From the IMG/VR virus record IMGVR_UViG_2875703104_000002: a stretch of 37,887 nucleotides of DNA; one strand, given 5' to 3'. Position 1 is the stretch's first letter; each line of letters begins with the position of its first letter. The notes below the pieces were generated by a model. That model had not been told where the DNA came from and searched no databases. It saw nothing but the letters and a program-made list of their open reading frames with translations. The position numbers and the translations under genes were made by a program. Positions 499 through 37,887 of the stretch are shown in pieces. The DNA comes from a virus (Duplodnaviria; Heunggongvirae; Uroviricota; Caudoviricetes).

Positions 499-505
499 CG
501 TGAGC

Positions 506-1696: not shown

Positions 1697-1856
1697 GGAT
1701 GCTTTTATAAAAATAATTAGAATAAGTCACTACGCATTCCCATAAATGCGGGAGAGGAATCTATCACATTGATGAATGTTAGCCAGATATACGCCAGGAA
1801 TGGGGAATTGTTTAGCGGCAGAATATGTAAACAAAAGCGGCAATAAATGTTGCCGG

Positions 1857-1906
1857 TGAAGCGGCGCACGAAAAACGCGAAAGCGTTTCACGATAAATGC
1901 GAAAAC
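1857..1906. mobile_element. attR: Mu right-end (attR) terminus with MuA-binding sites R1/R2; terminal dinucleotide 5'-TG at 1857-1858
   Basis: Sequence TGAAGCGGCGCACGAAAAACGCGAAAGCGTTTCACGATAAATGCGAAAAC matches the 50-bp Mu R-end used in MuA in vitro transposition (from memory); host DNA immediately to the left. Confidence 0.85.
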
Positions 1907-1933
1907 TTTAGCTTTCGCGCTTCAAATGAAACA

Positions 1934-1955
1934 GCAGTATTAATTACTGCTTTTT
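1934..1955. terminator. Hairpin (GCAGTA-ttaat-TACTGC) followed by T5, overlapping the mom stop codon; possible bidirectional terminator
   Basis: 6-bp inverted repeat with 5-nt loop at 1934..1950 followed by TTTTT on plus strand and preceded by an A-run (U-run on minus strand). Confidence 0.3.
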
Positions 1956-2697
1956 ATTCATTACATGGGGATCGCTTAGGGTATGGCTGAACCTTGAATA
2001 GTTTGGTATTTAGCCGCTTCCTTGCTCGCTTGTTCAGGAATCTGATGTAGCGATACTGATTAAATTTGTGCACCACGGCACGCTCTTTATTAGCCCGTAA
2101 ATACACGCCTCGTTGTCCACCTCGCTTAATCGCGTTCATCGTTATCTCGTGATACCACTCACCATCCAGCTCGTAGAATGTACTTTCATGACTGCCAATA
2201 AAATCAAAATTCGACGCCTGATACACAACGCCTGCGCGTCCGCAGCGTTCGTCTGCAAAGGACTGAACCCACTCCACTGACGGATACAGTAACCTGATGG
2301 TTTTCAGTGCATAACTGATGACCCGTGATTCAGAGTTGCGGGGCATGTCATCGTGTAGCCACATGCGGTTCAACTCCATATAGCCCCGGTTATCCGTTTC
2401 AAGCACGACACGACGACCTGAGTTGGGGTTAAGGGCATATCCCCACTGGAGAACGCCAACCAGATCGCGTCCGCTGAATACTCCCAGGTGGAGGTAAGAG
2501 TTATTCACAAAACGGCGGGAATAGTGCTTTGTCTGAATAATTGTGCGGGCCAGCCAACAGGATATGGTTTCAACGCGCAGCTCCTTTGAACCATAGCCAA
2601 CAATCTGGCCTTCATACTCAATAACGCACGGTTTCGTCAGAATGCGTGATTTCTTCTCTTTTCCCACAATGTTTCTCCGTGGGATGCTCGCAGGCAT
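1954..2697 (-). CDS. mom: Mom DNA-modification (anti-restriction adenine modification) protein; true start may be downstream of the ORF-track start, near the com stop
   Basis: 247-aa ORF as last gene before the R-end, overlapping the 3' end of the com zinc-finger ORF, preceded by a GATC-cluster regulatory region; matches Mu com-mom architecture. Confidence 0.8.
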
Positions 2698-2806
2698 TCA
2701 GCATTATGATGTGACGTTTGCAACGCGGACACCTGATTTCAATGTGAACAAAGGAATCCGCCTTAAATAACAGTTTGTTGCAGTTTTTACAGCGAATTGA
2801 TTTCAT
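2618..2806 (-). CDS. com: Com, zinc-finger translational activator of mom
   Basis: 62-aa ORF with CxxC...CxxC zinc finger (CKNCNK...CPRCKRH); strong SD AGGAGG 5 nt upstream of ATG; overlaps mom. Confidence 0.8.
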
Positions 2807-2930
2807 CTCACCTCCTTTGCATCAATTCGCCACTATCTTAAAAAACATCATGAGTTGAGTGTGGTTATTGGGGCATAATCGATCTGTATTACCGATCGAT
2901 TCAATTGATTCGATCGTCGTTTTCTATATG
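2807..2930 (-). promoter_or_regulatory. mom/com late promoter region with three clustered Dam GATC sites (2881, 2894, 2912)
   Basis: Three GATC within 35 bp, 75-110 bp upstream of the com start; known Mu Pmom architecture (Dam methylation blocks OxyR; C activates). Confidence 0.6.
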
Positions 2931-3062
2931 TGTTCGCTACGGCTGGGTATCATTTCCGACGAGAATAAACAAAAATTAACCGAGTGGATGCTCTATGCGC
3001 AGAAGGTCGAATATACAGACACCTCCAGCCTGCCAGTAACGTTTCCCGAACAACCAGAATGA
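2931..3062 (+). pseudogene. 3' remnant of an alternative tail-fibre assembly gene (U'-like), convergent with U; N-terminal part missing
   Basis: Plus-strand ORF ends ...LTEWMLYAQKVEYTDTSSLPVTFPEQPE, resembling the conserved C-terminal motif of tail-fibre assembly proteins (compare U C-terminus ...[26 protein letters not shown]); only about 44 codons of homology, upstream part runs into the mom GATC region. Confidence 0.5.
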
Positions 3063-3090
3063 GAGAAGGCCCGGTATCGGGGCTTAATTT

Positions 3091-3618
3091 TTACTCTGGT
3101 TTTTGTGGCCATTCTGGCTTTGCTGTATCCACACGGCTGACCAGAACGCTGTAGCGTTCCCAGGCTTCCAGTCGTGTGCGCTCCTCATCCGTCGCCATAT
3201 TCAGCCTGACAGCGCGTTCCAGCTGCTGGATGACTGATTCAGCTTCGGAAAGCAATGCGGCCTTTTGTAATTCGGCCTGCTGTTGCTGCTCGTCTGCCGT
3301 ATAAATCCGTTTAACCACAGCTCCGTCCTTAAACAGCCACTTTCCTGAATCGTCGGCGCGACGATTGGCGGTGATATCGGGAACTTCGACAACGCTGTAG
3401 CCTGTAGGGTCCAGTGTTGAAGCGTCTCTGGTTACGGCCACAATAATATTGTTCTCGTCGTAAAGAATTTTTATTGTGTCCGGCTGAAAGTTCTTCACTT
3501 CCTCATACCAGTTTTTTCCGTCTTCTGACCACAGCCAGGCAACATTAAAATTTTTTGTTAGCTGATATTGCTCAACGGTTTTTGGATTGCCGGCGACAAT
3601 GTTTTTTAAATGCTGCAT
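3091..3618 (-). CDS. Tail fibre assembly protein (U-like, Tfa family)
   Basis: 175-aa ORF directly downstream of the tail fibre gene; C-terminal Tfa motif W-x-x-Y-x-x-L-x-x-VDT-x-x-PEWP. Confidence 0.8.
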
Positions 3619-3621
3619 AAA

Positions 3622-6266
3622 TTACACCTGTGACACGTTGTACCACGTTCCGTTAATTAACTTTTGTATTGGTCTGAATACTGCCGGATCGTCGCCATCA
3701 ACTTCGCCGACAATGCCAAGCCCGGTAATTACATGGCCTGATTTCTCATACATCACGCCTTTTTGCATGGTCTGAACAACACGTGTGCCAAGTCGGACAT
3801 CCCTCACGTATCGGCCATCAAAATTGCCGTAATCCGAGGGGTTAACGCGCCCCGTAATATTTACGGTTTTATTACTCTGAATGCTGCCGGAAACAAAGCG
3901 CATAACATGGACGTTATTAGCATAAACATCCAGATTACCATCACCATTTTGTTTAAAGCCCGTGTCATTATCACCCAAAACAATCGAATTACCGCCAAGA
4001 GCACTGGATGTTCCTATACCCAGAGCACCATTCAATTGACCACCAGATAACGGCAGTGCACCGACATCTCCCGCTGTAGGTTTTCGCGTTGTGGTATAAA
4101 ACTCAGACCAGTCAGCCTCGAATCCGTAACCGTCACGAGCAGAACGATAAAAAATACCACCGTTCTTATAATTAACGCGAAACTGGGCGGCGGGACAACT
4201 TCCTTCACCGATATTAAAATGAAGAATTAACGTTGATGCCCCACCAATATTTGCGTTATAGGCTCCGCTACTCCAGTTCCATCCAACGGCTTTATCATTC
4301 GCAACGGTGTCTCCTGTTTTTCCTGAAGCAAATGCACCAATATTTTTCGGCGTCAGGTTAATATCTGATGTTCCATCAAACGAAACGTTATTAATTTTAT
4401 TCCTGAAGCAAATGCACCAATATTTTTCGGCGTCAGGTTAATATCTGATGTTCCATCAAACGAAACGTTATTAATTTTACGGGCTGTTTTCAGCTTTGTT
4501 GCTGTCGCCGCATTGCCGGACAGTTCACCAGAAAGGCCAGCACTGAATGCCTGTTTCGCGCCCCATGTCTGGGCTTCGTCAATGATTGGTACTCGTCTTG
4601 TTGTGATCGTGCGGCTTCCCGGATTTCCTGAAATGCGCACCATAAAAAAGCGGTAGTTGGCTTTACTTACAGTGCTGCGCCATACATGCATTGAGCGCCC
4701 CGTACCGGAATCATCACTCGGACCAACTGCGATGTTTATCAGGTTGCCATCAATGACGCCCCAGTCCATACCGTCGGGAATATTGGTCATATTATCCAGC
4801 CGAACGGTTATCAGACTGCCCGGCACAAAATCGTAGGTCTGCCAGTCCAGACTGGATAGTTTTGCCACTGCGCCACCGATGCCCAGATTCAGGGGAAGTG
4901 AATAAGATGTGTAAACTTCCCGCCATTCGCTCCATGAGCTGCCGGTAAAAACGCGCTCAAACGTGCGACCTTTAAGGGTTGTACCTGTTCCGGCAGTTGT
5001 ATAACGCTGCCATACGTTAACACCATCAAAGCGCCTCAACACTTCCAGAATACCGAGGACTGTCACGCCGTTTCCGTCCAGTATTGGACCGTTGGTTGCT
5101 TTACCTGTAACGCTGTAAATACCTGGTGAAGTCACATCATTCAAATCCCCGTCGTAATAACGACTCTCTGACTGATGACCGACTCTTAACCACGGTTCCC
5201 ACTGTGGGTTCTCTGCATTCCATGTAGCAGAAAGGCAGCGAACATATACGTTCCCACGGCGGGTCGTATAGCGTTGCGTGCGTGAGTACCCACCACCCTC
5301 AAGAACTTCAAGGAGTCCCTGACCATAACTTCCTTCTTCCGGATAGTTGCGGTCAAATGAAGCGATAGAGCCACTACTGTTTCGCCATAAACCAAGATGC
5401 TCTGCGCCTCCTAGCGTGTTCAGGTCAATAGCTGTGCTCAGGGGGCGTGTTGCAGACTGAATCTGACGCCAGTAGCTCCACGGACCGTCTGAGCCATTCC
5501 AGGTGCCAGAAAGATTACGCATATAAACATTGCCAGTTCTGGTGGTATAACGCTGCATTCCGGAAAAATTACCGCCATTGAAGACCTCAAGAACACCGAC
5601 TGCACCGTCTTCAGGGAAATTTTTCTCCAGTGTTGCGTTGGAGGATGTGGATTTATACCAGACACCCACATAAGCCTTAACTGGACCAAATGTATTGATA
5701 TCAGCATCAACCGGCATTTCGCCGTTGTTTTTCATAAACGTCAGGCTGGTAACGCCAACATTGTCCAGAAAAGCTGATTTATCCTGGATATCTGCACCAT
5801 TCTGATTTTTCGCCAGACGTGAATTTGCGTTGTCATTTGCTGCCTTGACCGCTTTTGGCGTTGCGGCGAGTGCTTCGGATGTGCTGTTGGTAGCACTACT
5901 TAGCTGAACCAGCCCCTTTTTGCTCACGCTGGCATCATAAATACCCAGATTTTCACGTGCTGTGCGCTGTGCTGATGCCCCGGCAGTTTTTATTTCGCTG
6001 AGGTTATTTTTTATCAGCAGCGCGTTCTTGTTCATGATGGCTTTAATGGACAGTGCAAGCTGGTTTAATTTTGTTTTATCCGGTTGAATACCGGCTTCTT
6101 CCAGCGTGTTTAATAACTCCGCCTGCACAATATTAAACCAGTCCATGCCGGGCCATGTGATAACATTATTCCCGTCACCTTCTGAAAACCAGCGAACGAT
6201 AGCACTACGCTGGGCGGATACGGGCGGCATGACGGTTACGCCGCTGTCGTTATCAATATAAAACAT
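3622..6266 (-). pseudogene. Tail fibre protein (S-like), frameshifted by an 80-bp tandem duplication: 637-aa N-terminal ORF 4353..6266 plus out-of-frame C-terminal continuation 3622..4320
   Basis: Hand translation shows minus-strand frame continuous from 4398 to 3622 with no stop; ORF1 and that frame encode the same peptide KINNVSFDGTSDINLTPKNIGAFASG across the two repeat copies; removing one copy fuses them into about 854 codons. Confidence 0.8.
4320..4479. repeat. Perfect 80-bp tandem direct duplication (copies 4320..4399 and 4400..4479) inside the tail fibre gene
   Basis: Both copies read TTCCTGAAGCAAATGCACCAATATTTTTCGGCGTCAGGTTAATATCTGATGTTCCATCAAACGAAACGTTATTAATTTTA; 80 is not a multiple of 3. 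Confidence 0.97.
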
Positions 6267-6808
6267 TAGTTATCTCCGTCATGGTAAACAAATTTATAAA
6301 TCTGATGCGCGGGTTTATATTTCTCCAGTAAACATTCCAGCGCACCCGATTCATAAACACGTAACGGCGTCAGAACATTATCCAGCACCGTTGCGTTGCG
6401 ATAATTTTTAATACCGTAAATATTGACCTGCGTAACCCACTGGCCTTCTGTGGAATCCGTCAGCCTGACGGTAAAACCGTACTGCGCAGCCAGCCATTCA
6501 TAAAAGCGCCGACTCAGATTGCCGGTCATACGCATTTTATTCGCGGCAGCCCGCTGGCGTTCGGACAGGGTGCCGTTTTCGCTTGTACAGTCCGGCAACC
6601 CCAGAAATGATTCCCACTCCCCCAGATACCAGCGGGATGTGGACGGGAAACGCTCCCGCAGCATTTGCCGCGCATCATCCGCCGCAGTGGCAATCACGTC
6701 GCTGATGGCCTGCGCCAGCGCAGATAATTTGCTGTCGGGGCTTTTATTCCAGGCAAGCCCTGACGGCAGTAATTGCAGAAAGGCCGTCTGATAGGGTGTT
6801 ACAGCCAT
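6266..6808 (-). CDS. Baseplate/tail protein (Mu gp48-like)
   Basis: 180-aa ORF immediately upstream of the tail fibre gene with overlapping stop/start; position and size match Mu gp48. Confidence 0.65.
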   Translation of the reverse strand: MAVTPYQTAFLQLLPSGLAWNKSPDSKLSALAQAISDVIATAADDARQMLRERFPSTSRWYLGEWESFLGLPDCTSENGTLSERQRAAANKMRMTGNLSRRFYEWLAAQYGFTVRLTDSTEGQWVTQVNIYGIKNYRNATVLDNVLTPLRVYESGALECLLEKYKPAHQIYKFVYHDGDN

Positions 6809-7881
6809 TCAATTGTCCCCGGTGTTAACAGTTCCGTATTCTCCGAACGCTGGATCTCTGTCGGGAAACGCACTTCAAAATCATCCAGACCGGTAACACC
6901 TGCCACCGCACGGATAATACGGGAGGGGGCAAGTGCGCCGCCCGGCGTCACCTCATTAAAAAACATGGTATTAATGGCGTGGGTAATAGCCTGTTTCAGT
7001 TCGGCTGTCTTCGGTGATATATAAATCCGTGGATTTACCGGCTTTGCCTTTGGCGCAAATACCGTGACATTTACACCGTCAGGCTGCCCGACAATCAGGC
7101 CGGTTATCGGGTCAGTATGACCGGCGATATAATCCGCCACACGTTCCACGTCTGCCGGTTGTGGAAAAATATTGCTCCGGTTATCCATAACAAACGTCAC
7201 CCCGACTGTGCCACCGCCTTTCCATGTCGGAAAACACCAGGCACGGGTAACGCCGCTGACTTCACGCGCCCAGCGGACGTAATCAAACTGATTACCGCCG
7301 AACGGAGGATACTGGACACGATATTCCAGCCGTGACAGCAGCTCCGCTGCACTCTCAATATCAGCCCCACCGGAAAACCCTTTTACAGTGATGGCATCGG
7401 AAACAACACAGGCAACCGGGGTGATCAACGTTAAAAGGGTATTCTCACCGGTATTTCCTGCCTCACCGGCAGCCAGTGCGGTAACGGTAATTTCCGTCGT
7501 TCCTGCACGGTCAATCACAATGGCATCAGCCAGGCTGTAAACCACACCATCAGCACGCTGCCAGCGTGTACCGGCAGGAATGGTGGTCGCTGCCGATGTG
7601 GTGACAGTCAGCGGGCCGCTGGCGGCTGTCGCCTGTTTGCGGCGCACGCCCCAGAACCGGCAGTGCTCCAGCAACTCATCTTCATCTGCTGTCGACGGGA
7701 TAATCTGCCGTCCAACCCATGAAATATGCTCGTGACAACCGGCAGCAAGGCCCGCCTGAGCATAAGCAATGGCACTCAGCGTTTTTTCACGGGCCTGAGG
7801 CCAGCTACCCGGCAGGCGCTGTTCAATATTCTGTTCTGTACGGGCAATCAGCGATGATAATGTCGGTGGTGAATAAGCCAT
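6799..7881 (-). CDS. Baseplate J-like protein (Mu gp47-like)
   Basis: 360-aa ORF in the baseplate block; size and position match Mu gp47. Confidence 0.7.
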   Translation of the reverse strand: MAYSPPTLSSLIARTEQNIEQRLPGSWPQAREKTLSAIAYAQAGLAAGCHEHISWVGRQIIPSTADEDELLEHCRFWGVRRKQATAASGPLTVTTSAATTIPAGTRWQRADGVVYSLADAIVIDRAGTTEITVTALAAGEAGNTGENTLLTLITPVACVVSDAITVKGFSGGADIESAAELLSRLEYRVQYPPFGGNQFDYVRWAREVSGVTRAWCFPTWKGGGTVGVTFVMDNRSNIFPQPADVERVADYIAGHTDPITGLIVGQPDGVNVTVFAPKAKPVNPRIYISPKTAELKQAITHAINTMFFNEVTPGGALAPSRIIRAVAGVTGLDDFEVRFPTEIQRSENTELLTPGTIEWL

Positions 7882-8319
7882 TTAAACCCCGTTAAATGCT
7901 GCTTTAAACTCATAAGGAATAACGGAACCATCCGGTAATGTCAGTGCAATGTAGAGGTATAACCAGCCCTGATGTAACTGTTCCGCTCTGACGTTAATCG
8001 CACTTACCCGGCCCGCTGTTTTCAGCCATTCCAGCGCCTCTTCGGCATACCCTCTGGCGCGTTCCAGCGTATCCGGTGTGGCTTTTTCACGTGATAACAG
8101 CCACAACCGCGAACCGATGGGGCGGTCGCGGTAACTGTCCCCCCACCATCCACGGCGATCATCTGAACCATCCGGCAGCGTGTCAGAATCCAGCGCGCGC
8201 CGGTCGGTAAACAGGGAGATTGTCACATCGGTTGTCAGGCTGTCGTCGGTCAGCATATCAATGCCATCCTGTGCAATATCGCCGCGTCCGTTCGTCCAGA
8301 TAATGGCTAAATCGGTCAT
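7882..8319 (-). CDS. Baseplate wedge protein (Mu gp46-like)
   Basis: 145-aa ORF, translationally coupled within the baseplate block. Confidence 0.65.
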   Translation of the reverse strand: MTDLAIIWTNGRGDIAQDGIDMLTDDSLTTDVTISLFTDRRALDSDTLPDGSDDRRGWWGDSYRDRPIGSRLWLLSREKATPDTLERARGYAEEALEWLKTAGRVSAINVRAEQLHQGWLYLYIALTLPDGSVIPYEFKAAFNGV

Positions 8320-8909
8320 TGCATTGGCCCCGTGGTTCCGCCGCTGTCGCCACGGTGGATATGCTTATCCGTCGATTTGCCATTGATGATGGCATCCGGG
8401 GCAGTAATATTGCTGTCGAACTGGCTTTTACCTTTAACGCCCAGACCTTTCTGGATCTCAACGTCGCCGGTAAACGTGGTTCTGGGTGTGTCAACGGTCA
8501 TACTTTCATCAGCGTAAACCTCGACCGTTTTACAGGTAATGATGCAGCGTCCGTCCTTTGTCAGCCTGATACGATGCCCCTCATGGTGGTAAATGCCTGC
8601 ATCACCCGGTTCAAGATTTGTCGGGCGGTAGCGGCGGTCTTCCACCACAACGGCGATCCCCTGATCACGTTGTGCACCCACACAGGCAATCAGCGCCTCT
8701 GCGCCCGGCAGGGGAACGCTGAAATGTCCGTAATTTTGCAGGCGCTCCACTTCATCGGATTCCTCATCATCCAGCAGACCGACCTGCAGGTTCTGAACCT
8801 TTCGCCCGTCGTTAATCACGTTAACAACAGCGCGCGCAAGCATCAGGCGCACACGACGCATCAGCGGCGTCAGCAGGCGGTTCAGGGCGGAATCATTTAC
8901 TCTTTCCAC
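8316..8909 (-). CDS. Baseplate hub/spike protein (Mu gp45-like)
   Basis: 197-aa ORF; position and size match Mu gp45. Confidence 0.65.
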   Translation of the reverse strand: MERVNDSALNRLLTPLMRRVRLMLARAVVNVINDGRKVQNLQVGLLDDEESDEVERLQNYGHFSVPLPGAEALIACVGAQRDQGIAVVVEDRRYRPTNLEPGDAGIYHHEGHRIRLTKDGRCIITCKTVEVYADESMTVDTPRTTFTGDVEIQKGLGVKGKSQFDSNITAPDAIINGKSTDKHIHRGDSGGTTGPMQ

Positions 8910-10036
8910 GGCGGTGTTTTCTCCGGGTGTCTGCGATAATAATCTTCAACCAGCGCATCAATACCGCCGTTACTGTCGCCGCCTTTCCTGTTTTTACGGT
9001 CGCTTTCAACCGGCACCAGAAAGCCTTCGCGTGGTGCAAGGCTGACGCGGGTTTTCAGCCCGTCCTGGTCATTCAGTATCAGGGTGACTTTGCTGACCAG
9101 TAATTCCGTGGTTTTGATGGCATATTTCGAGGCATCAATAGTGACCAGCAGGTTCGGCATCCAGAGTTGCCCGTCCTTGCGAGTCCATCCGTCAATTTCA
9201 GCCTCAAAGGTGATGGATTTTGCCAGTCTGCGGCGTTGCTCACGCAGGGCGCGGGCCTGTGCATCCTTCGCCGTAATTTTGCTGTCGGCAATGATGATCA
9301 TCGGTCTGTAACGGGTCACATCACTGTCAGTGGCGGTCCCTTTCCGGGAGACGATACTTTTCGCATCAATATCATCACCCTCAGCACCGTTTGCGCGGGC
9401 ATACCCCTTGACGGTGTATTCGCTGAACCGGTCGCGGAAGTCTTCCTCAAAATCCAGTGTCAGCAGATTTTCTCCGAGAACCAGCTCATCAGTGGCTGTG
9501 CTGGCAGCCCGGCTGAATACCAGCTCTCCGGCGGCATTGCTGGTCATCAGTACACCGCGTGCGCGGGAGGCACGCACCAGCGCCTCATAAACGGTTTCTG
9601 AATGGTCCAGCGTGAAGCCGGGAAAAGCTGCCGAACTTTCCTTATCGGAAAGCTCCCAGCGAACGGTAACGCCATAAGGGGTGCACAGGTCACGCGCAAT
9701 CTGCTCCAGTGTGCGGTTTTTCCACTGTCCGCCACTGTAAACGGCAGCACAGTCAATCAGGTCAGCCGTTTTGTCACGTCCGGCGATAGTGATTTTCATG
9801 CTGTCAGCGGTCATCTGGCGTCGCCGCGAATCGATATAACCGGTGCAGACAATCTGCCCGTCGATTTCCAGCGTGAACGCCTTCCCCGGTGCCAGCCCGG
9901 ATAAATCCGTGCCCGGTGGCACGTTCACCCCCAGCTCAAAATATCCGGCTACGGATTCAATGGAGCGGGTGACAGAAACTGACGACCAGCCGGTAAACAG
10001 CCTGCCATCCGCTCGCAGTGTGACGGTATTACTCAT
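8897..10036 (-). CDS. Baseplate protein (Mu gp44/P-like)
   Basis: 379-aa ORF between the N-like gene and the hub gene; size matches Mu gp44. Confidence 0.7.
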
Positions 10037-26730: not shown

Positions 26731-27044
26731 GAATTACTCCGGTTTACTGCGTTTTCAAGCAGCAGCTCCAGTTGATGGGAAAATGACTGCACCCGCTGGG
26801 ACAGCACCCGGATATCGCCGGACAGCTCTGCAATTCGCAGGCGCATTTCGTGTACATCTTCTGTGCCAGGGATGCTGGCGTAGCGGGTTTCCATTTCGGT
26901 CATCCGGTTTTCAAGACGCTCCACACGCTCAGTGCTGGCAAAACTACGACGCATTGCCCAGACGGCCCCACCGGCCACAACAGGCAACAGGTAAGGCCAT
27001 AACGCTAAAACTGAAATCAAATCCATTATTCTGCTCCACGGCAC
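26727..27044 (-). CDS. Membrane protein, possible lysis-associated (Mu gp25-like)
   Basis: 105-aa ORF with N-terminal hydrophobic segment (LISVLALWPYLLPVVAGGAVWA). Confidence 0.55.
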   Translation of the reverse strand: MPWSRIMDLISVLALWPYLLPVVAGGAVWAMRRSFASTERVERLENRMTEMETRYASIPGTEDVHEMRLRIAELSGDIRVLSQRVQSFSHQLELLLENAVNRSNS

Positions 27045-27220
27045 CAGTGGCAGTAGTTCGCCATCGGCTGCTGTCTCAGCACATCAGGCCGCAGCTCACG
27101 ACCGCAACTGGCACACAATACAGGCAGGTCATACGCCGCCGGGCGGGGAATATCACGGGTATCCCCCTGCCAGAGTTCAGCGAGCAGCAGCGCCACCGCC
27201 CGGTTCTGGTCTTCGTTCAT
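27026..27220 (-). CDS. Small zinc-ribbon protein (Mu gp24-like)
   Basis: 64-aa ORF with CxxC (CASCGRE) and CxxC (CHWCRG) pairs. Confidence 0.5.
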   Translation of the reverse strand: MNEDQNRAVALLLAELWQGDTRDIPRPAAYDLPVLCASCGRELRPDVLRQQPMANYCHWCRGAE

Positions 27221-29540: not shown

Positions 29541-29568
29541 CGTAAAAAAAGCCGGATTAACCGGCTTT
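29541..29568 (-). terminator. Rho-independent terminator immediately downstream of mor (AAAGCCGG-ttaat-CCGGCTTT followed by U-run); candidate early-operon terminator
   Basis: 8-bp stem, 5-nt loop and run of 7 T on the transcribed strand, 6 bp after the mor stop codon; about 9.3 kb from the inferred left end. Confidence 0.6.
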
Positions 29569-29573
29569 ACTGT

Positions 29574-29963
29574 TTACAGAAGTGAGGGCTGGTACTGGCG
29601 GTATTTCAGCCGTCGCATCCGGCGAATGGCCTTGTAAACCGTATTGAAAGTGACACCATAACGGGTGGTCAGTTCGCTGACGTTGCGACCGTTAAAATCA
29701 TTCCAGATACGCAAATCCCGAATCAGCGAGTCCAGAACCTGACCGCGTGGAATGTAGACCTGACCGCCGCCCAGATGCTTACAGATAGCCACAACAATCT
29801 CCAGTGAATGGGCAGGATCAACACCCAGCCGGGACAATTCCCCGCGTAGTAAATCGTTCAGCTCCGCCAGCAGTGCCGGAAAGCGTGACGTATCCTCTGC
29901 GGGATTGTCAAGATGTGCCAGGATGGTGTCATCCTGCAAATCACCAAATAAATCTTCCGTCAT
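29574..29963 (-). CDS. mor: Middle operon regulator Mor
   Basis: 129-aa ORF paralogous to C; last gene before the strong terminator. Confidence 0.85.
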   Translation of the reverse strand: MTEDLFGDLQDDTILAHLDNPAEDTSRFPALLAELNDLLRGELSRLGVDPAHSLEIVVAICKHLGGGQVYIPRGQVLDSLIRDLRIWNDFNGRNVSELTTRYGVTFNTVYKAIRRMRRLKYRQYQPSLL

Positions 29964-30511
29964 TGTGCCATCCTCCGTGTCTTTCTGGCATGGGCATAAG
30001 CCGCCATCATGGCATCATAGCCGCGCAGTTCACGACCGGACGGACTGACCGGCAATGGAAGCCCGTGACGGGAAAAGGCTTCACGAATACAGCGGATGTG
30101 CCACTGTTTGAGTGTTTCGAGGACTGTCAGCAGCGTGTCGCCATGACACCACGCCAGTGTGGAAACACCCTGTCCACCGTTGCGTTTCGCCGTCAGGCGT
30201 TGAACGTATCTGTCCAGCGCCACATCACTGCCGTCGGTAATAAACCCGTCTTCTGCCATCTGCTGCCAGACTTTGTACACCTTCTCGCGGGGCGTGACAT
30301 GTTCCTTAAAGCGTCGGCGTGGGTGTTTATTCTGCTTCTTAAAGCCGCGTTCTTTCATGGCATCGAGCACCTGTTCCAGTTGCGTGACCGTCAGCTCGCG
30401 GCAACTGATTTTGCCCGTTTTCTGCATCAGAAAAGCGCGGTAAGTGTCGTCGTCGAGTTGTAGCTCCCGACGGGCGACATGGATTAATTTAATCAGGGAT
30501 GTGCGACTCAT
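29960..30511 (-). CDS. gemA: GemA-like protein
   Basis: 183-aa basic ORF directly upstream of mor with 4-bp overlap. Confidence 0.7.
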   Translation of the reverse strand: MSRTSLIKLIHVARRELQLDDDTYRAFLMQKTGKISCRELTVTQLEQVLDAMKERGFKKQNKHPRRRFKEHVTPREKVYKVWQQMAEDGFITDGSDVALDRYVQRLTAKRNGGQGVSTLAWCHGDTLLTVLETLKQWHIRCIREAFSRHGLPLPVSPSGRELRGYDAMMAAYAHARKTRRMAQ

Positions 30512-30530
30512 GATCGTACCTCCGGAAAGA

Positions 30531-30550
30531 GGCGGTGCTGCAACACCGCC
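30531..30550 (-). other. Hairpin (GGCGGTG-ctgcaa-CACCGCC) in the 100-bp gap upstream of gemA
   Basis: 7-bp perfect inverted repeat; no clear U-run, so possibly an RNA processing/stability element rather than a terminator. Confidence 0.3.
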
Positions 30551-30613
30551 TGAATTTACACATCAATCAGAGTGGATTTTATGGAAAATAATGTTTTAGT
30601 TTCATTATTCATA

Positions 30614-30796
30614 TTATTCACCTTCACAATTCATGCACGCCGTGTCATCGCCCATATCGCAGTGGTTGCATTTCTGCCCACCACAATGAGGGCACTCTTT
30701 CAGATATTCAGGGTTTTCATTACCGCAGGTCGGACATTCCTGCTTCACAGTGGTAAATGTCCCCAGCCACGAATACGATGTTTCATTGTTTTCCAT
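30614..30796 (-). CDS. Small zinc-finger protein (60 aa)
   Basis: Eight Cys in CPTCG...CPHCG...CNHC...CMNC arrangement. Confidence 0.55.
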   Translation of the reverse strand: MENNETSYSWLGTFTTVKQECPTCGNENPEYLKECPHCGGQKCNHCDMGDDTACMNCEGE

Positions 30797-31313
30797 TGTT
30801 TACCTCCGCCTGTTTTTGCGCCCGGATAAATTCGTCAGAAAGGATTTCAGTCATGCGGCCTTGTGCGGGCGTCATCCCCGTCATGACGTAAATCACATCA
30901 CCAACACGGAACCACTGGAGAGGTCCGAATATTGTTGCGCTGAAATCCAGTCCCAGTGCGGGTAAGAGAGCATCTGTGCGGGCATAAGTGACCGGAATAT
31001 TCTCCTGCCATATTTTCGCCAGCTCTTTTGCCTGCTCCCTGAGATGAACAGGTATCCGCGAAGTTCTGGGCCTGCAACTATTACCTGATGCGGGCCGTTG
31101 TACGGTCCACAGCTCCCGCGAGAAAGGGCGCTCATTCCCCGGAAAGTTCACACCATGAAAATAACGCCCACCAATACCTGTGCTGAATACTGACCGGCAA
31201 CCACAACCCAGAACCTTATCAAGATGGCGGGCTTCTTCGCGTAGTTTCAGACAGTCCGCCATAAACTGGTCCCACGCCAGCAGTGCTGCGGGATTTGACG
31301 TTTTAAAAAACAT
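30783..31313 (-). CDS. Hypothetical early protein (176 aa from ATG at 31311..31313; ORF-track start is an upstream TTG)
   Basis: ATG overlaps the upstream stop (TGATG) and is preceded by SD GGAGG. Confidence 0.55.
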   Translation of the reverse strand: MFFKTSNPAALLAWDQFMADCLKLREEARHLDKVLGCGCRSVFSTGIGGRYFHGVNFPGNERPFSRELWTVQRPASGNSCRPRTSRIPVHLREQAKELAKIWQENIPVTYARTDALLPALGLDFSATIFGPLQWFRVGDVIYVMTGMTPAQGRMTEILSDEFIRAQKQAEVNNGKQ

Positions 31314-31843
31314 CACGCCACCTCCTGCACCGCTGCGGGAGCCGGAGAACAATCAAGAATGAGATAACGCAGTACATGGTCGGTGATATTCCAGGCGCTT
31401 GAACTGCAAATAAAACGCCCCAGCCGGATATCGATATAAGCCATCACAAAACGGGGCATTCCCTGTTCGCACATTCTGTTATCCACCTCAGCAACAATGT
31501 GGACTGACTCACAGGTCAGCACGCCCGTCGCAAACTCTTTTGCCAGCGCGGGGATGGTATTACCTTCCACCCAGGGTAATGAGCGACGCCAGTTGCACCA
31601 CACCGCATCATCAACAGCAGGCTGCTCAGTTGCGTTTCGTCTTACAGGCGGCGTCGGACGCGGGCGCGGAACGTCATAAAATCCGTTGCATTCGGTGAGC
31701 ACTCCGGCATCAACCGCATCACGCAGGAAATACACCATTGACGAGGGCAGCATATTCATTTTTTCAGCCAGAACTCCGCAGGTCAGGCGTCCGTAAGTCC
31801 GTAATAATGTGCTGACACCATTCAGAATTTTTGCATCAACCAT
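31313..31843 (-). CDS. Hypothetical early protein (176 aa)
   Basis: ORF downstream of gam in the semi-essential early region. Confidence 0.55.
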   Translation of the reverse strand: MVDAKILNGVSTLLRTYGRLTCGVLAEKMNMLPSSMVYFLRDAVDAGVLTECNGFYDVPRPRPTPPVRRNATEQPAVDDAVWCNWRRSLPWVEGNTIPALAKEFATGVLTCESVHIVAEVDNRMCEQGMPRFVMAYIDIRLGRFICSSSAWNITDHVLRYLILDCSPAPAAVQEVA

Positions 31844-31941
31844 GTTTTATTCCTCAGTAATCTGTTTCAGGCGCGAGCAATCCCCTGACGTATCGCGCCA
31901 TAATTAAAAGAATGTGAATTAATTAAATATTAATGGTGGTA

Positions 31942-32466
31942 TTAAATACCGGCTTCCTGTTCAAATGGAATAATAGAAAAATCCTCAATGCCTGATTTAA
32001 CTGTAATTCCGGCAACGCCTGCGACCGCTTTCGGTTCCAGTAAAATCGCTTCCTTGTTGATTTCCTGCTTCGTGCGAATAAAGCGTTGCAGGCCAAGACG
32101 CTCCAGCGTTTCCATCACTGCATCCATACCACGAATACTTACTGATGGCGGACGGACCCGCCACGATACATCACCGGTGACAAGATTCGCCGTCTTCACT
32201 TTGCCGCCGTTCGTCAGTTCGTCGCGGTTCGCTTCACACCATCCCTGAACGCCTTTTGAAAGGGTTTCAATATCGGTTTTAATCGGTGCAATCCGGGCTG
32301 CAAATTTTTCCGTAATTTCCGCGATGGCATCATTCATTTCCGTTTCCAGACGTGATGCTTCGCGCTGTAAATCCCCGATGCGTTTAATATCGGTAATCAC
32401 CGCATCGCGGTTTTGTGGCACATAAGCCGCTGCGGCACTTTTGATACGTTTTGCTGGTTTAGCCAT
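31942..32466 (-). CDS. gam: Gam, DNA-end-binding (Ku-like) protein that protects ends from RecBCD
   Basis: 174-aa ORF beginning MAKPAKRIKSAAAAYVPQNRDAVITDIKRIGDLQRE, recognised as Mu Gam. Confidence 0.85.
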   Translation of the reverse strand: MAKPAKRIKSAAAAYVPQNRDAVITDIKRIGDLQREASRLETEMNDAIAEITEKFAARIAPIKTDIETLSKGVQGWCEANRDELTNGGKVKTANLVTGDVSWRVRPPSVSIRGMDAVMETLERLGLQRFIRTKQEINKEAILLEPKAVAGVAGITVKSGIEDFSIIPFEQEAGI

Positions 32467-32485
32467 AAATTAAAGCTCCTGTTAA

Positions 32486-32785
32486 TTAATATCCGCTGTA
32501 TACAATGCTGGATACAGCTCGATTGCTTAATTCCATCTTTCGGGCAATGACATGAATATCCAGTCCTTCTTTATAAAGTTCACGACATAAATATTTGTCG
32601 TGTTCACTGATTCGGTATACACACAATGATATTCCGTGCCTTCTGGCATGTGCCCGGAGGGCGGTTGTGGCGACTTTCAGTTTTTCCGCCATTTCTTCAA
32701 TGGTCATTTTCCCGACGTTGGCTTCGATAAATTCCCGGTCTTCGCGTGACCAGCGCTTACGATTACACTTCATGTCAGTCACCAT
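32486..32785 (-). CDS. Hypothetical early protein (99 aa), possible DNA-binding
   Basis: ORF in the semi-essential region; C-terminal helix-rich region. Confidence 0.5.
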   Translation of the reverse strand: MVTDMKCNRKRWSREDREFIEANVGKMTIEEMAEKLKVATTALRAHARRHGISLCVYRISEHDKYLCRELYKEGLDIHVIARKMELSNRAVSSIVYSGY

Positions 32786-33205
32786 TCAGTACAGCAGAGG
32801 CTCGCGCAGTGATGCCGGAATATGCCGCAGCGATAACTGAACCGCTTTCAGGGCAAGCGAGGAATAACAGCAGCGCGCCCAGCCTTTTGCCATTAACCGG
32901 TAATCGCGCCAGATACGCTGCCACATTTCACGGGCTTCAGGGTCTGATGCGCAGATGTATTCCCGGTCCATGACGTACTCCCATAAATCCACGTTGAACG
33001 CACCGCCAAATGCAATGGCGCGGGATATGCTTTCGCCGCAATAACGCGCACAGATGCTGTAATGGTCGAAAGCAATCAGGTAAGTCTTTTCACCACAATC
33101 ATCAACTTTTCGGGCGCAAATAAACTCGCGTAATTCACCACCGTTGTTATTGCGTTCCTGAATTCGGATTAATGCCTGAATTTCATTTCGGATTTTGACG
33201 TTCAT
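32786..33205 (-). CDS. Hypothetical Cys-rich early protein (139 aa)
   Basis: ORF with multiple Cys and aromatic residues. Confidence 0.5.
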   Translation of the reverse strand: MNVKIRNEIQALIRIQERNNNGGELREFICARKVDDCGEKTYLIAFDHYSICARYCGESISRAIAFGGAFNVDLWEYVMDREYICASDPEAREMWQRIWRDYRLMAKGWARCCYSSLALKAVQLSLRHIPASLREPLLY

Positions 33206-33225
33206 TGTCAGCGTTCCTTTGCGAA

Positions 33226-33495
33226 TTAATGTTTAACCGCATTCACCGGATGTGGTACTAAATCACATTCAGCCTCCATACCCACTTTCTTCATAGTGGT
33301 CAGCATCTCATCTTTGGCCTTTTTAATAATTTCAGGAGCCATAGTCAGGACGATATTTGCCAGTAAATCATGAGGCCCGGTATTTTCCGTTGGCGAGATA
33401 TCTGCAAGACATGCTTTTGCATCCAGAACTTCTCTGCGCCCATTGCAACCTTCACTACTTTCCAGCCATGTAAACTCAAAGATAACTTTTGCCAT
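33226..33495 (-). CDS. Hypothetical early protein (89 aa)
   Basis: ORF in the semi-essential region. Confidence 0.5.
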   Translation of the reverse strand: MAKVIFEFTWLESSEGCNGRREVLDAKACLADISPTENTGPHDLLANIVLTMAPEIIKKAKDEMLTTMKKVGMEAECDLVPHPVNAVKH

Positions 33496-33506
33496 TTTGC
33501 GTCTCC

Positions 33507-33761
33507 TTATTGATTCTGAATAACTGCGCTGGCTTTTACCTTCGCGCCTTTTACCTGCTTAAAGAAAACCGCGCTGCACCACGGACAACATGCAAAGGAG
33601 TCCCATACTTCATTTTCTGGTGAGCATTGCGTCATAATTTGCTCTTTGCATTTGGGGCAATTAAATGCAGTCAGAGCCACATTGTTATTCTGTACCCGTT
33701 TAACCCATTCAATATATTTTTCAGCTTTAGTACACATCGTTATCTCCAGATAATCTGGCAA
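33507..33761 (-). CDS. Zinc-ribbon early protein (84 aa)
   Basis: CPKCKEQ...CCPWCSAVF motif. Confidence 0.5.
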
Positions 33762-33967
33762 CCATTAAGACGGGCCGTCCATACAGAACGGGCCACCCCG
33801 GACTTATGCTCCATAATTCTGACCGCGTTTTTTACCAGTTCCACCGGTGGGTAAGTGATTTCAAGAATCGGACGCGCCACGCCGAGATATGATTCATTTA
33901 CATGACTCCCGCGCGCCTGTAACCAGTTCTGCGCATCCGTTGCCATTTTTATGTTTCGGGCTATCAT
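33740..33967 (-). CDS. kil: Kil-like protein (host killing/cell division inhibitor)
   Basis: 75-aa ORF immediately downstream of B, the position of Mu kil. Confidence 0.5.
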
Positions 33968-33982
33968 AATTTCTTCTCCTTC

Positions 33983-34921
33983 TTAATTACGCAGCAGCGT
34001 TGAAATATCAACGTCCAGGTCTAATTCACGGAAAGCCTGACGCAGATAATCTTCGTTAACACGCTCACCTTTACCGTGAGCCGTCATGGCGGCAAGGCGA
34101 AGTGAATGATTCAGAATGCGAAGCGCACCTGGTTTCTGCGCAATCTGCTGTAATAACTCCAGTTCATTTTCGCCGTTAATCTGCCAGGCATCCGCAATAG
34201 CTTTTACATCGGCTTTTTTGGTTTTATTAATTGCAGTGCGCTTTGCAATACGGGAAAACAGACGGGCAAATTCAACCGTTCTGTTACCCCCCGTCATATT
34301 TGAATAAACCCGGTGATTTCCCATCAGCACAAGGCCAGTGCGGGTTGATTCCTGTAACAGGCGGAGTTCTTCCAGAACTTCGGCACCAAGATGATCAGCT
34401 TCGTCGATGATAACCAGCCCCTGTGTACCTTCAAGGCGACGTCGCAGGGCGCGGGAGAGCGGCCCTTTACGGCGTGGTGCGTCATTCATTCCCAGCTCAA
34501 ACGCCAGTTCAGTAAGACATTCCAGAACGCTGGCACAGGATGGCGTAATGGTGATCATCCAGACATTGTTATTGGTGCGGCGATATTCACGGGCCGCTTC
34601 GGTTTTGCCCACACCAGGATTGCCACATACAACAGCAATACTTTCAGTCAGGCTGGCAAAACGCATACTTGTCCAGATTTGTTTTACCGTCTGCGTTTCC
34701 ACAAAGCGGGGCGGTTCAGGTAGTTCTGCAACTGCATGATATTTTTCCAGCCAGCGTTGCAGAATTTGTGAAACACGCTCGTTATCCCCGTTGTACTTAT
34801 CATTGATAAAACTACTGATAGTTCCGGTAGAAAGTCCGCTCTCAAGAGCAATTTGTTTAAAGGTGGTTTCTTCATTTTCTACAAGCGTGCGCAGTCCTGC
34901 GCGAATATCGGAAATATTCAT
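33983..34921 (-). CDS. B: Transposition target-DNA activator MuB (AAA+ ATPase)
   Basis: 312-aa ORF with Walker A GNPGVGKT and N-terminal HTH; directly downstream of the transposase. Confidence 0.9.
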   Translation of the reverse strand: MNISDIRAGLRTLVENEETTFKQIALESGLSTGTISSFINDKYNGDNERVSQILQRWLEKYHAVAELPEPPRFVETQTVKQIWTSMRFASLTESIAVVCGNPGVGKTEAAREYRRTNNNVWMITITPSCASVLECLTELAFELGMNDAPRRKGPLSRALRRRLEGTQGLVIIDEADHLGAEVLEELRLLQESTRTGLVLMGNHRVYSNMTGGNRTVEFARLFSRIAKRTAINKTKKADVKAIADAWQINGENELELLQQIAQKPGALRILNHSLRLAAMTAHGKGERVNEDYLRQAFRELDLDVDISTLLRN

Positions 34922-34959
34922 CTGAATAACCTCGTAATTAAATTTTGTTTAAACGTTAA

Positions 34960-36948
34960 TTAAATGGCTTTTTTACGTCTGTTCTGTTCCAGAATATCCA
35001 GCGAATGATTCAGATATTCATCACGCTCAGTTTCGTATTCATCATCACGCTCCTGATTCTTCACCCGTTCCATATTACCGGAAGGCCGGAAAATGCCGAC
35101 AATTCGTGATTCTGGTGCTTCAGGTTCGGCTATCTGCGGCAGCAGCTCTGCCACTTCCAGTGCATCCATTTGTTTCTGTGCCTTAATCGCTGCTTTCGTC
35201 GCAGATTTCAGTTGTTTCTGGCGGCGACGATATTCACGGCCTGCCGCAGCATCATTAAACGCAACAGGTGCCAGACATTCCGCTTCACAGATAAACCGAC
35301 CGTCCAGGGTGTAGCAATAAACCGTGCTGTGTAACTGCTGTGGATCAAATCTGACCACAACTTTTTTCACTCCGGCATTCATTAACGCCATGTTGTAATA
35401 AACGTTTTTCGCACCTTTAAGGGAGCCGCCAACTTTAAGCGCGAACTCGCCTTTACGTGAAACGTTCACCGCCTCGGCAGGCAGTAACAGCATCCGTTTT
35501 TGCTCTTCGGTAGGCTTACGCACAATCGTTCTGGCGTATTCACGCTCAAAAACGTCATCAAACGAAAGTTTGCCTCCGCACATTTCTGTTTCACGGCCTG
35601 TTCTGGCATTGAACATCGCCACACCTTCGGCAAGGGTTTTCAGAAACAGCTCTGCATCAACAGCGCGGTCGCCATAGTTATCAGGTTTTGCCTGCGGATT
35701 AGGCCCCGTATATGCGCCAGCCAGTGCCGGATGCTTATCAACGTATTCCTCAAGCCCACCAACACCGAAAGCACGTTCAACAGGTTTTGCCTGGCCCCAG
35801 CCTTTACCAGCAACAACGCTTGTCCAGTGCATTTTCGCCCCCATCAGTAAAAACAGTCCCTTTGGGTCGTCCTCTTTTACCTTAAAGCGGTAGCGATTGG
35901 GCGCGCCTCCCGTCAGCCATTTATTCGCAGCACCACGGGTGTTATCAATGGTGATGTGAAAATCCTCCGGGATACCGTAGCGAGTCACAACATCCATGAA
36001 CGAGAGGCGAATTGAATCAATGTTCTCGCTCACATCGCAGCGCCAGCCCAGAATTTTTCGGGTTTTCACATCCTGCCAGAACCATGTTTTCGGGCGGATC
36101 ACATCACCGTTAAACCAGCGTACAAAGACGTTATGCAGATAACCGTCGCCGTTGATCCACTGCATGGCGTCCAGGTGTTCCACAGTTCGCTGCTGTGCCG
36201 GTATCAGATGCATCAGTGCATGTTCACCTTCACGGCAGGCAACAACCATTGCCTCGTCCAGTTGCTGAATCCGGCGAAAGGCCGTGGCACGGGAGGGAAT
36301 ACTCCAGCCATGCTCGCGGGCTGCCAGTTCCAGACGCTCATAACATTTGCGGAAGGCGGGTTTTTCCGGTCGCAGATAATCTGCAATCAGAAACTGCCAG
36401 GCATCCTCGTCAAATTCACTTTTGTGAACATTGCGACGGGATGCTCCACGTCCATCAACAAGTGCAGCCGCCCAGTCAGGCTTCGCAAGCTTCTGTACCT
36501 GGTAATACTTGTCCCGCAAAGTGGATGCGCTGACCTGGTAATGCCCTGCAACGGTCGCAAAAGCCGTTTTCGTTGAAATCCCCTGGTTCAGCATTTCGTC
36601 TGCAGCCTGAACAGCAGGCAACCATTTTTCAGCAAGTCTGCGCTGGGAATCGCTGGCGTTATCCCATTTGCTCCACAGTGCCTCACGATCATAATCATGG
36701 GCTTCCAGCGTGGGGCGGGCGATTTCAAAATACCCCTGACTTGTTTCAATTCTCCCTTGTTGCAACAGAATTTCAGCACGTAATGCGACAGGGAATGATT
36801 TGATATTGAATTCAAATGATACACCTTTAGTCCCTGCAACCTGCCTGAACTCCCAGCCTTCTCTTTGTGCCTTACGTGTAATGTTAGTGGCTTGCTTTGG
36901 TAAACCTGCCAAACCGAGCAACTCTTTTGCTGTATACCATTCTTTCAT
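34960..36948 (-). CDS. A: DDE transposase MuA
   Basis: 662-aa ORF; N-terminal winged-helix domain ([30 protein letters not shown]) is paralogous to the N-terminus of the adjacent repressor ([30 protein letters not shown]); acidic C-terminal tail. Confidence 0.95.
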
Positions 36949-36955
36949 AGCGCAC

Positions 36956-37177
36956 CTAGTATCGAGACGGCCAAATATCTTGCGGTGTCATTCCCAGTGC
37001 ATCTGCAATGATTTTCTCCGCTTTCGGATATCTCTTATCCAAAGCATTTTTTAATGTTGAAGACGAAAGATGATTAGATCTTCCCAATTCAGCTAGTGAC
37101 ATATTGCGTTTTCGTAGCTCTGCAACGATGTCAGCTCTGTGCCAATCTTGGCGGTTAGTTCTTTTATTCATATGCAT
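36956..37177 (-). CDS. ner: Ner, early negative regulator (D108 type)
   Basis: 73-aa ORF with [13 protein letters not shown]...WPSRY motifs, first gene of the early operon, preceded by an 11-8-11 palindromic operator. Confidence 0.85.
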
Positions 37178-37362
37178 TTCATGTAATCCTTTCAGATTCC
37201 CCCGTGAGCTACGCTATAAAGTAGCTCACGGCATATCGTGCAATGTAGTGTGGAATCATTTTTAAATCAATAGTGATTTGAAAGGATTTATCATGATTTC
37301 ATATAACAGCATGATTTTTATATGAATTTATTTTGTCTCTATTGAAATCACTAGGATTTTAA
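37178..37362. promoter_or_regulatory. Immunity/operator region between ner and c (divergent Pe and Pc promoters, repressor and Ner operators)
   Basis: 185-bp AT-rich divergent intergenic region with repeated TTGAAA/TTTCA-type motifs and a perfect palindrome. Confidence 0.6.
37202..37231. promoter_or_regulatory. Ner operator: 11-bp inverted repeats CCGTGAGCTAC / GTAGCTCACGG separated by 8-bp AT-rich spacer
   Basis: Perfect palindrome 25-54 bp upstream of the ner start; matches the architecture recalled for the D108 Ner site. Confidence 0.6.
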
Positions 37363-37887
37363 ATGATGTCTTTTGAAATCAAAGAATGGTTTAATGCGAA
37401 AGAGCTGGAAGGGATGCCTGGTGTACCAAAGTTGGCGACTAACATTACCAGGAAAGCTGTGGCGGAAGATTGGGTAAAACGTCAGCGTCACGGTGGGAAA
37501 GGTGTCGCTTATGAGTATCACATCAACAGTCTGCCAGAAGAAACACGCAGGGCCATTAAAGGAGCCTCACTTTCTGATAAACCAGTGCATACATCAATCG
37601 TCCATACAGTTGATGAGAGGCTAATTTATGCAATGAGTTTCTTAACACCAGATGAGCAGGCCGCAGCAGTGGAGATCATTCGTGTAGCAGGGATTAAAGG
37701 ACTTATGCCTACAATTGTCAGTAAAGATAAGGCATTAGAGGCATTAGGGATTACTGTGGAGCAACAGAAAACCCTGCAAACTCTTCAGGCATTACCACCG
37801 GAAAAAGTGAGAGAGATTTTGTCTCAGTATGAAGGCAAAGAACATAATTTCCCTGTAAGAGAAAACGATGTAAAGAAAGCTGTATAA
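37363..37887 (+). CDS. c: Lysogeny repressor c (D108-like)
   Basis: 174-aa ORF divergent from ner; N-terminal DNA-binding domain paralogous to the MuA N-terminus; C-terminus ...VKKAV. Confidence 0.8.
   Translation: MMSFEIKEWFNAKELEGMPGVPKLATNITRKAVAEDWVKRQRHGGKGVAYEYHINSLPEETRRAIKGASLSDKPVHTSIVHTVDERLIYAMSFLTPDEQAAAVEIIRVAGIKGLMPTIVSKDKALEALGITVEQQKTLQTLQALPPEKVREILSQYEGKEHNFPVRENDVKKAV

Follow-up and report, generated by a model that had tools for sequence, protein, structure and literature searches.

The virus record IMGVR_UViG_2875703104_000002 (37,887 nt, hereafter the window) was identified by open reading frame (ORF) listing and BLAST as the genome of a phage of the Mu/D108 family (Muvirus), represented on the minus strand. 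The string of small genes between B and mor, which a sequence-only reading had singled out for its Cys-rich proteins, constitutes the semi-essential early (SE) region of a transposable phage of Mu/D108 type. The region has been described before and differs little from that of sequenced phages. Its most constrained protein is the core of gp13, which carries four CxxC pairs and behaves as a mobile, portable module. Variation was mapped to three exchange hot spots, located at gp6/gp7, at gam/gp11 and from the end of gp12 to gemA, where alleles or whole genes are swapped among phages that are otherwise 93-99% identical.

Between B (33983-34921) and mor (29574-29963) ten genes form one coupled string on the minus strand, in agreement with the earlier expectation of at least nine tightly coupled small ORFs. 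The genes, named according to the RefSeq annotation of Mu and D108, and the end of the transcription unit are the following.

kil, 33740-33967, minus strand: 75 aa, host-killing and septation-inhibition protein, 98.7% identical to Mu and D108 Kil (PHROG 2743, E 6.7e-43)
gp6, 33507-33737, minus strand: 76 aa, basic protein with a predicted C4 zinc ribbon and a Lys-rich tail, 100% identical to YpM_5 and 77% to Mu
gp7, 33226-33495, minus strand: 89 aa, hypervariable cassette, of which three deep alleles exist
gp8, 32786-33205, minus strand: 139 aa, Muvirus-restricted orphan
gp9, 32486-32785, minus strand: 99 aa, small helix-turn-helix (HTH) protein, "D5-like transcriptional regulator" (PHROG 323, E 6e-29)
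gam, 31942-32466, minus strand: 174 aa, Ku-like DNA-end-binding protein (PF07352, E 4e-42), 100% identical to Mu Gam
gp11, 31313-31843, minus strand: 176 aa, N-terminal region followed by a Gp11_C domain (PF25754, E 1.5e-40)
gp12, 30783-31313, minus strand: 176 aa, Phage_Mu_Gp12 family (PHROG 2314, E 7e-80)
gp13, 30614-30796, minus strand: 60 aa, acidic protein with four CxxC pairs
gemA, 29960-30511, minus strand: 183 aa (PF06252, E 2e-32), 96% identical to Mu GemA
mor, 29574-29963, minus strand: 129 aa, middle-operon activator, 99% identical to Mu Mor
intrinsic terminator after mor, 29548-29568, minus strand: a rho-independent terminator is annotated at the same place in D108

The spacers between these genes range from -14 to +20 nt, except for two gaps of approximately 100 nt (gam/gp11 and gp13/gemA). 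A GGAG-type ribosome-binding site precedes nine of the ten genes, the exception being gp9, which starts directly after the gp8 stop codon. Compared with orthologues in Mu, D108, SfMu, Yersinia phage vB_YpM_5 (YpM_5) and Escherichia coli prophages, the ratio of nonsynonymous to synonymous differences (pN/pS) was 0-0.6 for all ten genes. They are therefore genuine coding sequences. Position, order, strand and coupling are the same as in the SE/SEE region of Mu and D108 (Mu gp5-gp17: kil, gp6-gp9, gam, gp11-gp15, gemA, mor), and the location between B and mor, the orthology and the synteny with Mu, D108 and YpM_5 confirmed the supposed identity as the early region of a Mu-like phage. A gene-by-gene comparison with Mu and D108 revealed orthology to Mu gp5-gp13, gemA and mor. 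Protein identities to Mu are 93-100% for kil, gp8, gp9, gam, gp11, gp12, gp13, gemA and mor; gp6 reaches 77%, and gp7 is homologous but only 28% identical. As had been suspected, the set thus differs from canonical Mu: the window combines immunity of D108 type with a diverged gp6 allele, another gp7 allele and a deletion of gp14/gp15. Every gene of the block matches an annotated ORF in Mu, D108 or YpM_5, but a match to a Mu-family protein is not a match to a characterised one. The products of gp6, gp7, gp8, gp11, gp12 and gp13 are labelled "hypothetical" in RefSeq, all their PHROG matches are of "unknown function", and no functional study of Mu gp6-gp13 was found in the literature.

The protein encoded by gp13 had been described as a 60-aa product with eight Cys, which proved correct. 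These residues are arranged in four CxxC pairs, and among the 307 ORFs of 40 aa or more in the six frames of the window gp13 alone has four of them. Across 13 homologues, which extend down to 58% identity, none of the eight Cys varies, and a CDMGDD..C.NCE motif is likewise invariant. The protein is acidic (pI 4.4, net charge -8). Its 40-aa core is strongly constrained (pN 0.05-0.14, dN/dS ~0.03-0.09; B, Gam, GemA 0.16-0.35; synonymous sites near saturation), and in distant Mu-like prophages it remains 75-92% identical, whereas B is 44-49%, Gam 54-59% and GemA 39-47% identical. The Cys pattern predicts a double zinc module with two Zn(Cys)4 sites. In a comparison with double zinc ribbons and the DnaJ-type CXXCXGXG zinc domain, scores of gp13 were below the Pfam gathering thresholds of PF13240 (18.8 vs 25 bits), PF00684 (19.2 vs 32.7 bits) and PF12773 (17.2 vs 27.3 bits), and its homologues carry no precomputed Pfam domain.

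Relatives of gp13 were located in 42 IMG/VR contigs. In four of these loci the module forms the C-terminal domain of a 231-aa protein that corresponds to PHROG 6418, an in-frame fusion found in D108-like prophages (L012:5476-6171; also L013, L024 and L025). The N-terminal ~170 residues of this fusion stand in for gp12, are unrelated to it and have no Pfam match. Two further loci, L028 and L030, show a clean deletion of gp12 with gp13 kept; here gp11 (5463-6014) is fused to the last gp12 residues (…VNNGKQ), so that the overlapping start of gp13 is preserved. In L009, a distant metagenomic Mu-like phage without gp11 and gp12, gp13 follows directly after Gam. Proteins of gp13 type with eight Cys also occur in two non-Mu contexts: at L052:6001-6159, where the lambdoid-like early region also encodes a cI-like repressor, a DnaQ-like exonuclease and a DNA methyltransferase, and at L081:5001-5132 on a Buttiauxella contig, ~4.5 kb from an ASCH-domain gene. 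An obligate pairing or frameshift fusion of gp12 and gp13 was considered and rejected, as gp13 has its own GGAGG site and the overlap contains no slippery heptamer; the arrangements in L028, L030 and L009 likewise rule out an obligate pair.

The first half of gp13 (CxxCG-x3-P-x-[YW]-L-x2-CPxCG) resembles the N-terminal C4 zinc finger of RadA/Sms, including the same 10-residue spacing, and RadA is the top PDB match of the gp13 profile, although this match is not significant (E 0.02-0.04, 23 residues aligned) and serves as a lead only. In RadA the C4 finger is the module needed for interaction with RecA (PMC5512693). gp13 differs from RadA in carrying a second CxxC...CxxC site and in having neither helicase nor Lon-like domains. 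A further resemblance is to YacG, which is of similar size, shares a CPTCG knuckle and contains an aligning [KR]C...D[ML]G[DE] stretch, but the match in the PDB profile search was below significance (E 0.08-0.1). YacG has one C4 site, and its Trp-containing C-terminal tail has no counterpart in the aligned part. YacG is a 65-aa zinc-finger inhibitor of DNA gyrase, a theme close to that of GemA, which the literature ties to gyrase/ligase functions.

The recognisable members of the block and its surroundings act on the DNA metabolism and physiology of the host: Kil inhibits cell division and Gam protects DNA ends from RecBCD by capping them, while Mor switches on the middle genes. The SE region of Mu has been described as "largely uncharacterized", with functions "largely unknown"; its genes lie on the long Pe transcript and show low-level transcription even in the lysogenic state (PMC3820752). 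Mu can grow without this "semi-essential" region. Exceptions with known roles are the Ku-like Gam and gem, which is tied to host ligase and gyrase functions (PMC3820752); a link of GemA to gyrase/ligase is also made in the reference list of PMC12407980. In Pseudomonas a Mu-type Gam and a GemA homologue each confer sensitivity to Gabija, via lost RecBCD action on phage DNA (PMC12407980). The known roles of Gam and GemA therefore place the known members on host DNA-end, repair and topology pathways, and it appears rather probable that the remaining members are dispensable accessory early proteins of the same kind.

Based on synteny with Mu, all ten genes would be read within the long early Pe transcript, ending at the terminator after mor, and their translation would be coupled through overlapping or near-abutting start and stop codons. 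The basic gp6 protein would fold around one Zn(Cys)4 site and probably bind nucleic acid or a nucleic-acid-bound protein, while gp9 and possibly gp11 would be small DNA-binding proteins. gp13 would be folded around its two sites and most likely serve as a small adaptor for a conserved host protein, plausibly one in the repair, recombination or topology pathways targeted by its neighbours. Such a partner is favoured over a role in Mu transposition or as a fast-evolving immune antagonist because of the acidity, the extreme constraint and the spread of gp13 to non-Mu contexts. Any strain-specific host-interaction or counter-defence functions would most likely be located in the three exchange slots. 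A more specific proposal, which we put forward tentatively and at a low probability, is that the 40-residue double zinc module is a conserved mobile early effector that binds one invariant host protein of recombination, repair or topology. RecA (through a finger like the RadA C4 module) or gyrase (as for YacG) would be examples of its target, and transposable and some lambdoid phages of Enterobacterales would use it on its own or built into a larger protein as its targeting domain. This would be compatible with the extreme constraint, the acidic surface, the fusion, the occurrence beyond Mu-like phages and the sub-threshold resemblance to RadA and YacG.

Several points weigh against these interpretations. 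The timing of expression is taken from Mu only. The resemblance of gp13 to the RadA finger and YacG is sub-significant and driven by the Cys motifs. AlphaFold2 models of gp8 (13-sequence alignment, predicted local distance difference test (pLDDT) 46.5) and gp13 (pLDDT 59.2) are too poor for use, and a Foldseek comparison of the gp13 model with the PDB gave only matches at E>1 to two-zinc fingers of PHD, FYVE and RBR type, which are not interpretable.

In the alignment gp7 is one family with three deep alleles, a Mu/SfMu type, a D108 type and a window/YpM_5 type, with 28-42% identity between and 98-100% within types. With the YpM_5 type the window copy shares 98-100% identity, with the D108 type 42% and with the Mu/SfMu type 28%; tblastn at E<=1e-3 gave no counterpart for it in Mu, and DNA similarity to Mu disappears precisely across 33220-33476. 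The neighbouring gp6 is 77% identical to both the Mu and the D108 version. Synonymous divergence between gp6 alleles (pS ~0.3) is roughly ten times that of the flanking kil and gp8, and these are therefore old alleles brought in by recombination. Among IMG/VR prophages the gp6 and gp7 alleles reassort independently. A DUF5420 gene is inserted in the gam/gp11 spacer of SfMu and of several IMG/VR loci. Between gp13 and gemA the cargo consists of gp14 and the leftward gene gp15 in Mu, gp14 in D108, two rightward genes and one leftward gene in YpM_5 and SfMu, and a leftward DUF2513 gene in one E. coli prophage. In another E. coli prophage gp13 itself is replaced by an ASCH-domain protein and a 113-aa protein; this ASCH protein (Esc31) was rejected as a carrier of the gp13 module, as it has no CxxC motifs. 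In the window gp14 and gp15 are absent and the slot is empty. The deletion joins codon 6 of gp14 to approximately codon 5 of gp15 (junction 30595/30594), and the identical junction is present in the prophage of E. coli FDAARGOS_1058 (L006). The gp13-gemA gap is 102 nt in the window vs at least 559 nt in all 35 of the 35 IMG/VR relatives that have both genes. The following small features lie at these sites.

18-codon remnant ORF (MNNETK...), 30556-30612, minus strand: marks the gp14/gp15 deletion
9-bp GC hairpin, 30530-30551, minus strand: immediately upstream of gemA, on the right border of the variable slot, also conserved in Mu and YpM_5 (z-score -2.1)
GC-rich hairpin, 31870-31899, minus strand: from fold prediction, in the 98-nt gam/gp11 spacer, an insertion hot spot

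Both hairpins thus sit at insertion/deletion hot spots; possible functions are stabilisation of RNA, attenuation or a role as recombination landmarks. The gp13-gemA slot often holds a gene on the opposite strand, such as Mu gp15 (L001:4818-5084) or the DUF2513 gene (L004:3962-4378); in the window this gene is deleted. Transcription of an opposite-strand gene would require a separate promoter, and expression in the lysogen, as for a moron, would be possible. Anti-CRISPR genes of Pseudomonas Mu-like phages are located in the late region, not in the left arm. Short, packed, dispensable early ORFs that are partly shared and occupy fixed slots are also known from the lambda nin region and the left-arm plasticity regions of Pseudomonas Mu-like phages (PMC4378225). 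Most of the window block (gp8, gp9, gp11, gp12 and gp13) is conserved, in contrast to these clusters, and the Pseudomonas left-arm ORFs have no sequence similarity to it.

The small zinc proteins and gp7 could instead be dedicated early inhibitors of defence systems such as restriction-modification, retrons, CBASS or Gabija. The proteins are encoded beside Gam, a counter to RecBCD, in the operon expected to be expressed first, and Mu-type homologues of Gam and GemA determine Gabija sensitivity (PMC12407980). The presence of three gp7 and two gp6 alleles that reassort in a backbone of 93-99% identity, as well as the changing cargo of the gp13-gemA slot, would also suit such a function. However, a PADLOC search gave no defence-family match, the only two matches (on gp9 and gemA) having E>0.003, and no anti-defence annotation was retrieved from PHROG, Pfam and NCBIfam, which are not dedicated anti-defence libraries; none of the latter was searched. 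Moreover, gp13, gp8, gp11 and gp12 evolve under strong purifying selection and are nearly invariant across hosts, unlike most inhibitors, which track variable immune proteins, and the gp14/gp15 cargo has been wholly lost from the window phage. A role as dedicated anti-defence factors is considered unlikely. The earlier view that the zinc proteins are prime anti-defence candidates found no functional match in PADLOC, Pfam, NCBIfam or PHROG in its favour, and it is at odds with the purifying selection on gp13. The anti-defence idea is a guess that fits the variable slots, i.e. the gp6/gp7 alleles and the gp13-gemA cargo, better than the conserved zinc proteins.

The second predicted zinc protein, gp6, had been reported as an 84-aa zinc ribbon encoded at 33507-33761. 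This ORF exists and its zinc-ribbon sequence was substantiated, but the 84-aa form would require a TTG start located within kil. In Mu, D108 and YpM_5 the start is the ATG at 33737, 2 nt past the kil stop and preceded by GGAG, which yields 76 aa. The residues C27, C30, C50, C51 and C54 (CPxC-x19-CCPWC) are invariant in nine homologues, down to 64% identity, and gp6 is by sequence a classical C4 zinc ribbon predicted to bind zinc. It is basic (pI 8.7), and PF26833 is precomputed on its homologues. A specific relationship to gp13 or to Mu Com was rejected, as only the generic zinc knuckle aligns; in the comparison with Com hhalign gave a probability of 18%, across the CxxC knuckle only. Com itself is encoded at 2618-2806 on the minus strand of the window, with two CxxC pairs (PF10122, E 1.3e-7), and a 64-aa ORF near the lysis genes (27026-27220, minus strand) also has two CxxC pairs, with sub-threshold Pfam matches only.

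These properties bear on whether gp6 and gp13 regulate phage gene expression or transposition as nucleic-acid binders like Mu Com and P2 Ogr. Com (PF10122) and Ogr are CxxC...CxxC zinc ribbons from the same kind of phage, gp6 and gp13 are 60-76 aa long, and Mu already uses the 62-aa Com as a translational activator. The basic charge and Lys-rich tail of gp6 and the vicinity of gp9, which resembles a DNA binder, and of gp11, which may be one, point in the same direction. However, the similarity of gp6 to Com is not specific, and gp13 is acidic, has two predicted metal sites and is also found in non-Mu prophages, where regulation is organised differently. gp6 and gp13 belong to the early genes; the action of Com on mom mRNA is late. 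Dispensability of the SE region for Mu growth (PMC3820752) also speaks against a regulatory function, which we regard as somewhat less likely still than the anti-defence function.

For gp8 the designation as a Cys-rich protein is true of the window copy, which contains seven Cys, but does not extend to a conserved Cys or zinc protein. Within Muvirus only C52 and C56, together with H48, are invariant, and the remote homologues P0051 and P0052 share none of the Cys. Among 1.84 billion representative proteins an exhaustive HMMER search gave 11 matches, which comprise one full-length 50% cluster and two remote relatives at 31-33% identity; the 24 gp8 clusters are all from Mu prophages of Enterobacterales. 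gp8 is therefore a lineage-restricted orphan and not a conserved metal protein. An apparently 45% identical protein of 149 aa (P0024) was rejected as a distant homologue; it is a frameshifted gp8 copy, in which identical blocks alternate with the alternative reading frame. A chance origin of the ORFs, or of their Cys patterns, in non-coding or mis-framed sequence, for which the mostly lineage-specific gp8 cysteines and the unlikely TTG start of the longer gp6 form could be cited, is extremely improbable given the ribosome-binding sites, the pN/pS well below 1, the conservation across dozens of prophages and the singular, invariant four-CxxC pattern of gp13, and it is refuted for gp6 and gp13.

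The statement that only Gam is recognisable was too strong, since Kil, GemA, the C-terminal domain of gp11 and the HTH protein gp9 are also matched by PHROG or Pfam. Gam scores 144.1 bits against PF07352 (gathering cut-off 28.3). The HTH matches of gp9 in Pfam and NCBIfam are weak and below their cut-offs. gp11 is 58-69% identical in distant Mu-like prophages, and its conserved N-terminal region may, judging from the sequence, be a winged helix; its best PDB profile match is a MarR regulator (E 0.54). The gp12 gene starts with the ATG at 31313, which overlaps the gp11 stop codon. Newer, name-only Pfam families are recorded on homologues of Kil (PF26843), gp6 (PF26833) and gp12 (PF26885). Single-sequence and profile searches of the PDB with gp6, gp8, gp11, gp12 and gp13 gave no significant relative, and scans of NCBIfam and Rfam gave nothing useful. 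In two Salmonella Mu-like prophages (L010 and L011, 2757-3395) a 212-aa DUF3164 protein occupies the expected position of Gam, followed by DUF5420, gp11, gp12, two extra ORFs and gp13.

At the DNA level the flagged early stretch shares 98.5% identity with the Yersinia phages vB_YpM_5 and vB_YpM_6, 97.3% with Mu across 93% of its length and 93.1% with D108. Besides the SE region, ner, C and lys were identified by ORF listing and BLAST, as were the following genes.

repressor c, 37363-37887, plus strand
A, 34960-36948, minus strand
B, 33983-34921, minus strand

The immunity and transposase end comprising c, ner and the start of A (34900-37887) is of D108 type, with 99.4% identity. Its combination with gp6/gp7 of YpM_5 type is a mosaic that was not found as such in the collections of phage genomes or complete E. 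coli genomes. The window ends (37887) at the stop codon of repressor c, and ~340 bp of the phage left end (attL) are absent. The right end of the phage lies near position 1857, and the ~1.86 kb beyond it (1-1856) are presumably host flank. In the right-hand 9 kb (1-9000), which contain the tail-fibre, G-segment and mom region, Mu or D108 match only ~55% of the sequence at high identity, and the tail-fibre module differs.

The window itself is one more mosaic copy of a known region. What the analysis adds is a map of the hot spots, a ranking of candidates and the recognition of gp13 as an unusually constrained, portable module with two predicted zinc sites. Candidates that merit testing are gp13, gp6 and the gp7 alleles; as a metal protein, gp8 does not. 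Although Mu is a textbook phage, approximately eight genes of its early operon lack an assigned function, and the identification of partners of gp13 or gp6 would fill a gap that is decades old. In view of the effect of Gam and GemA on Gabija sensitivity, such a result could tie the replication of transposable phages to the repair and immunity pathways of their hosts.

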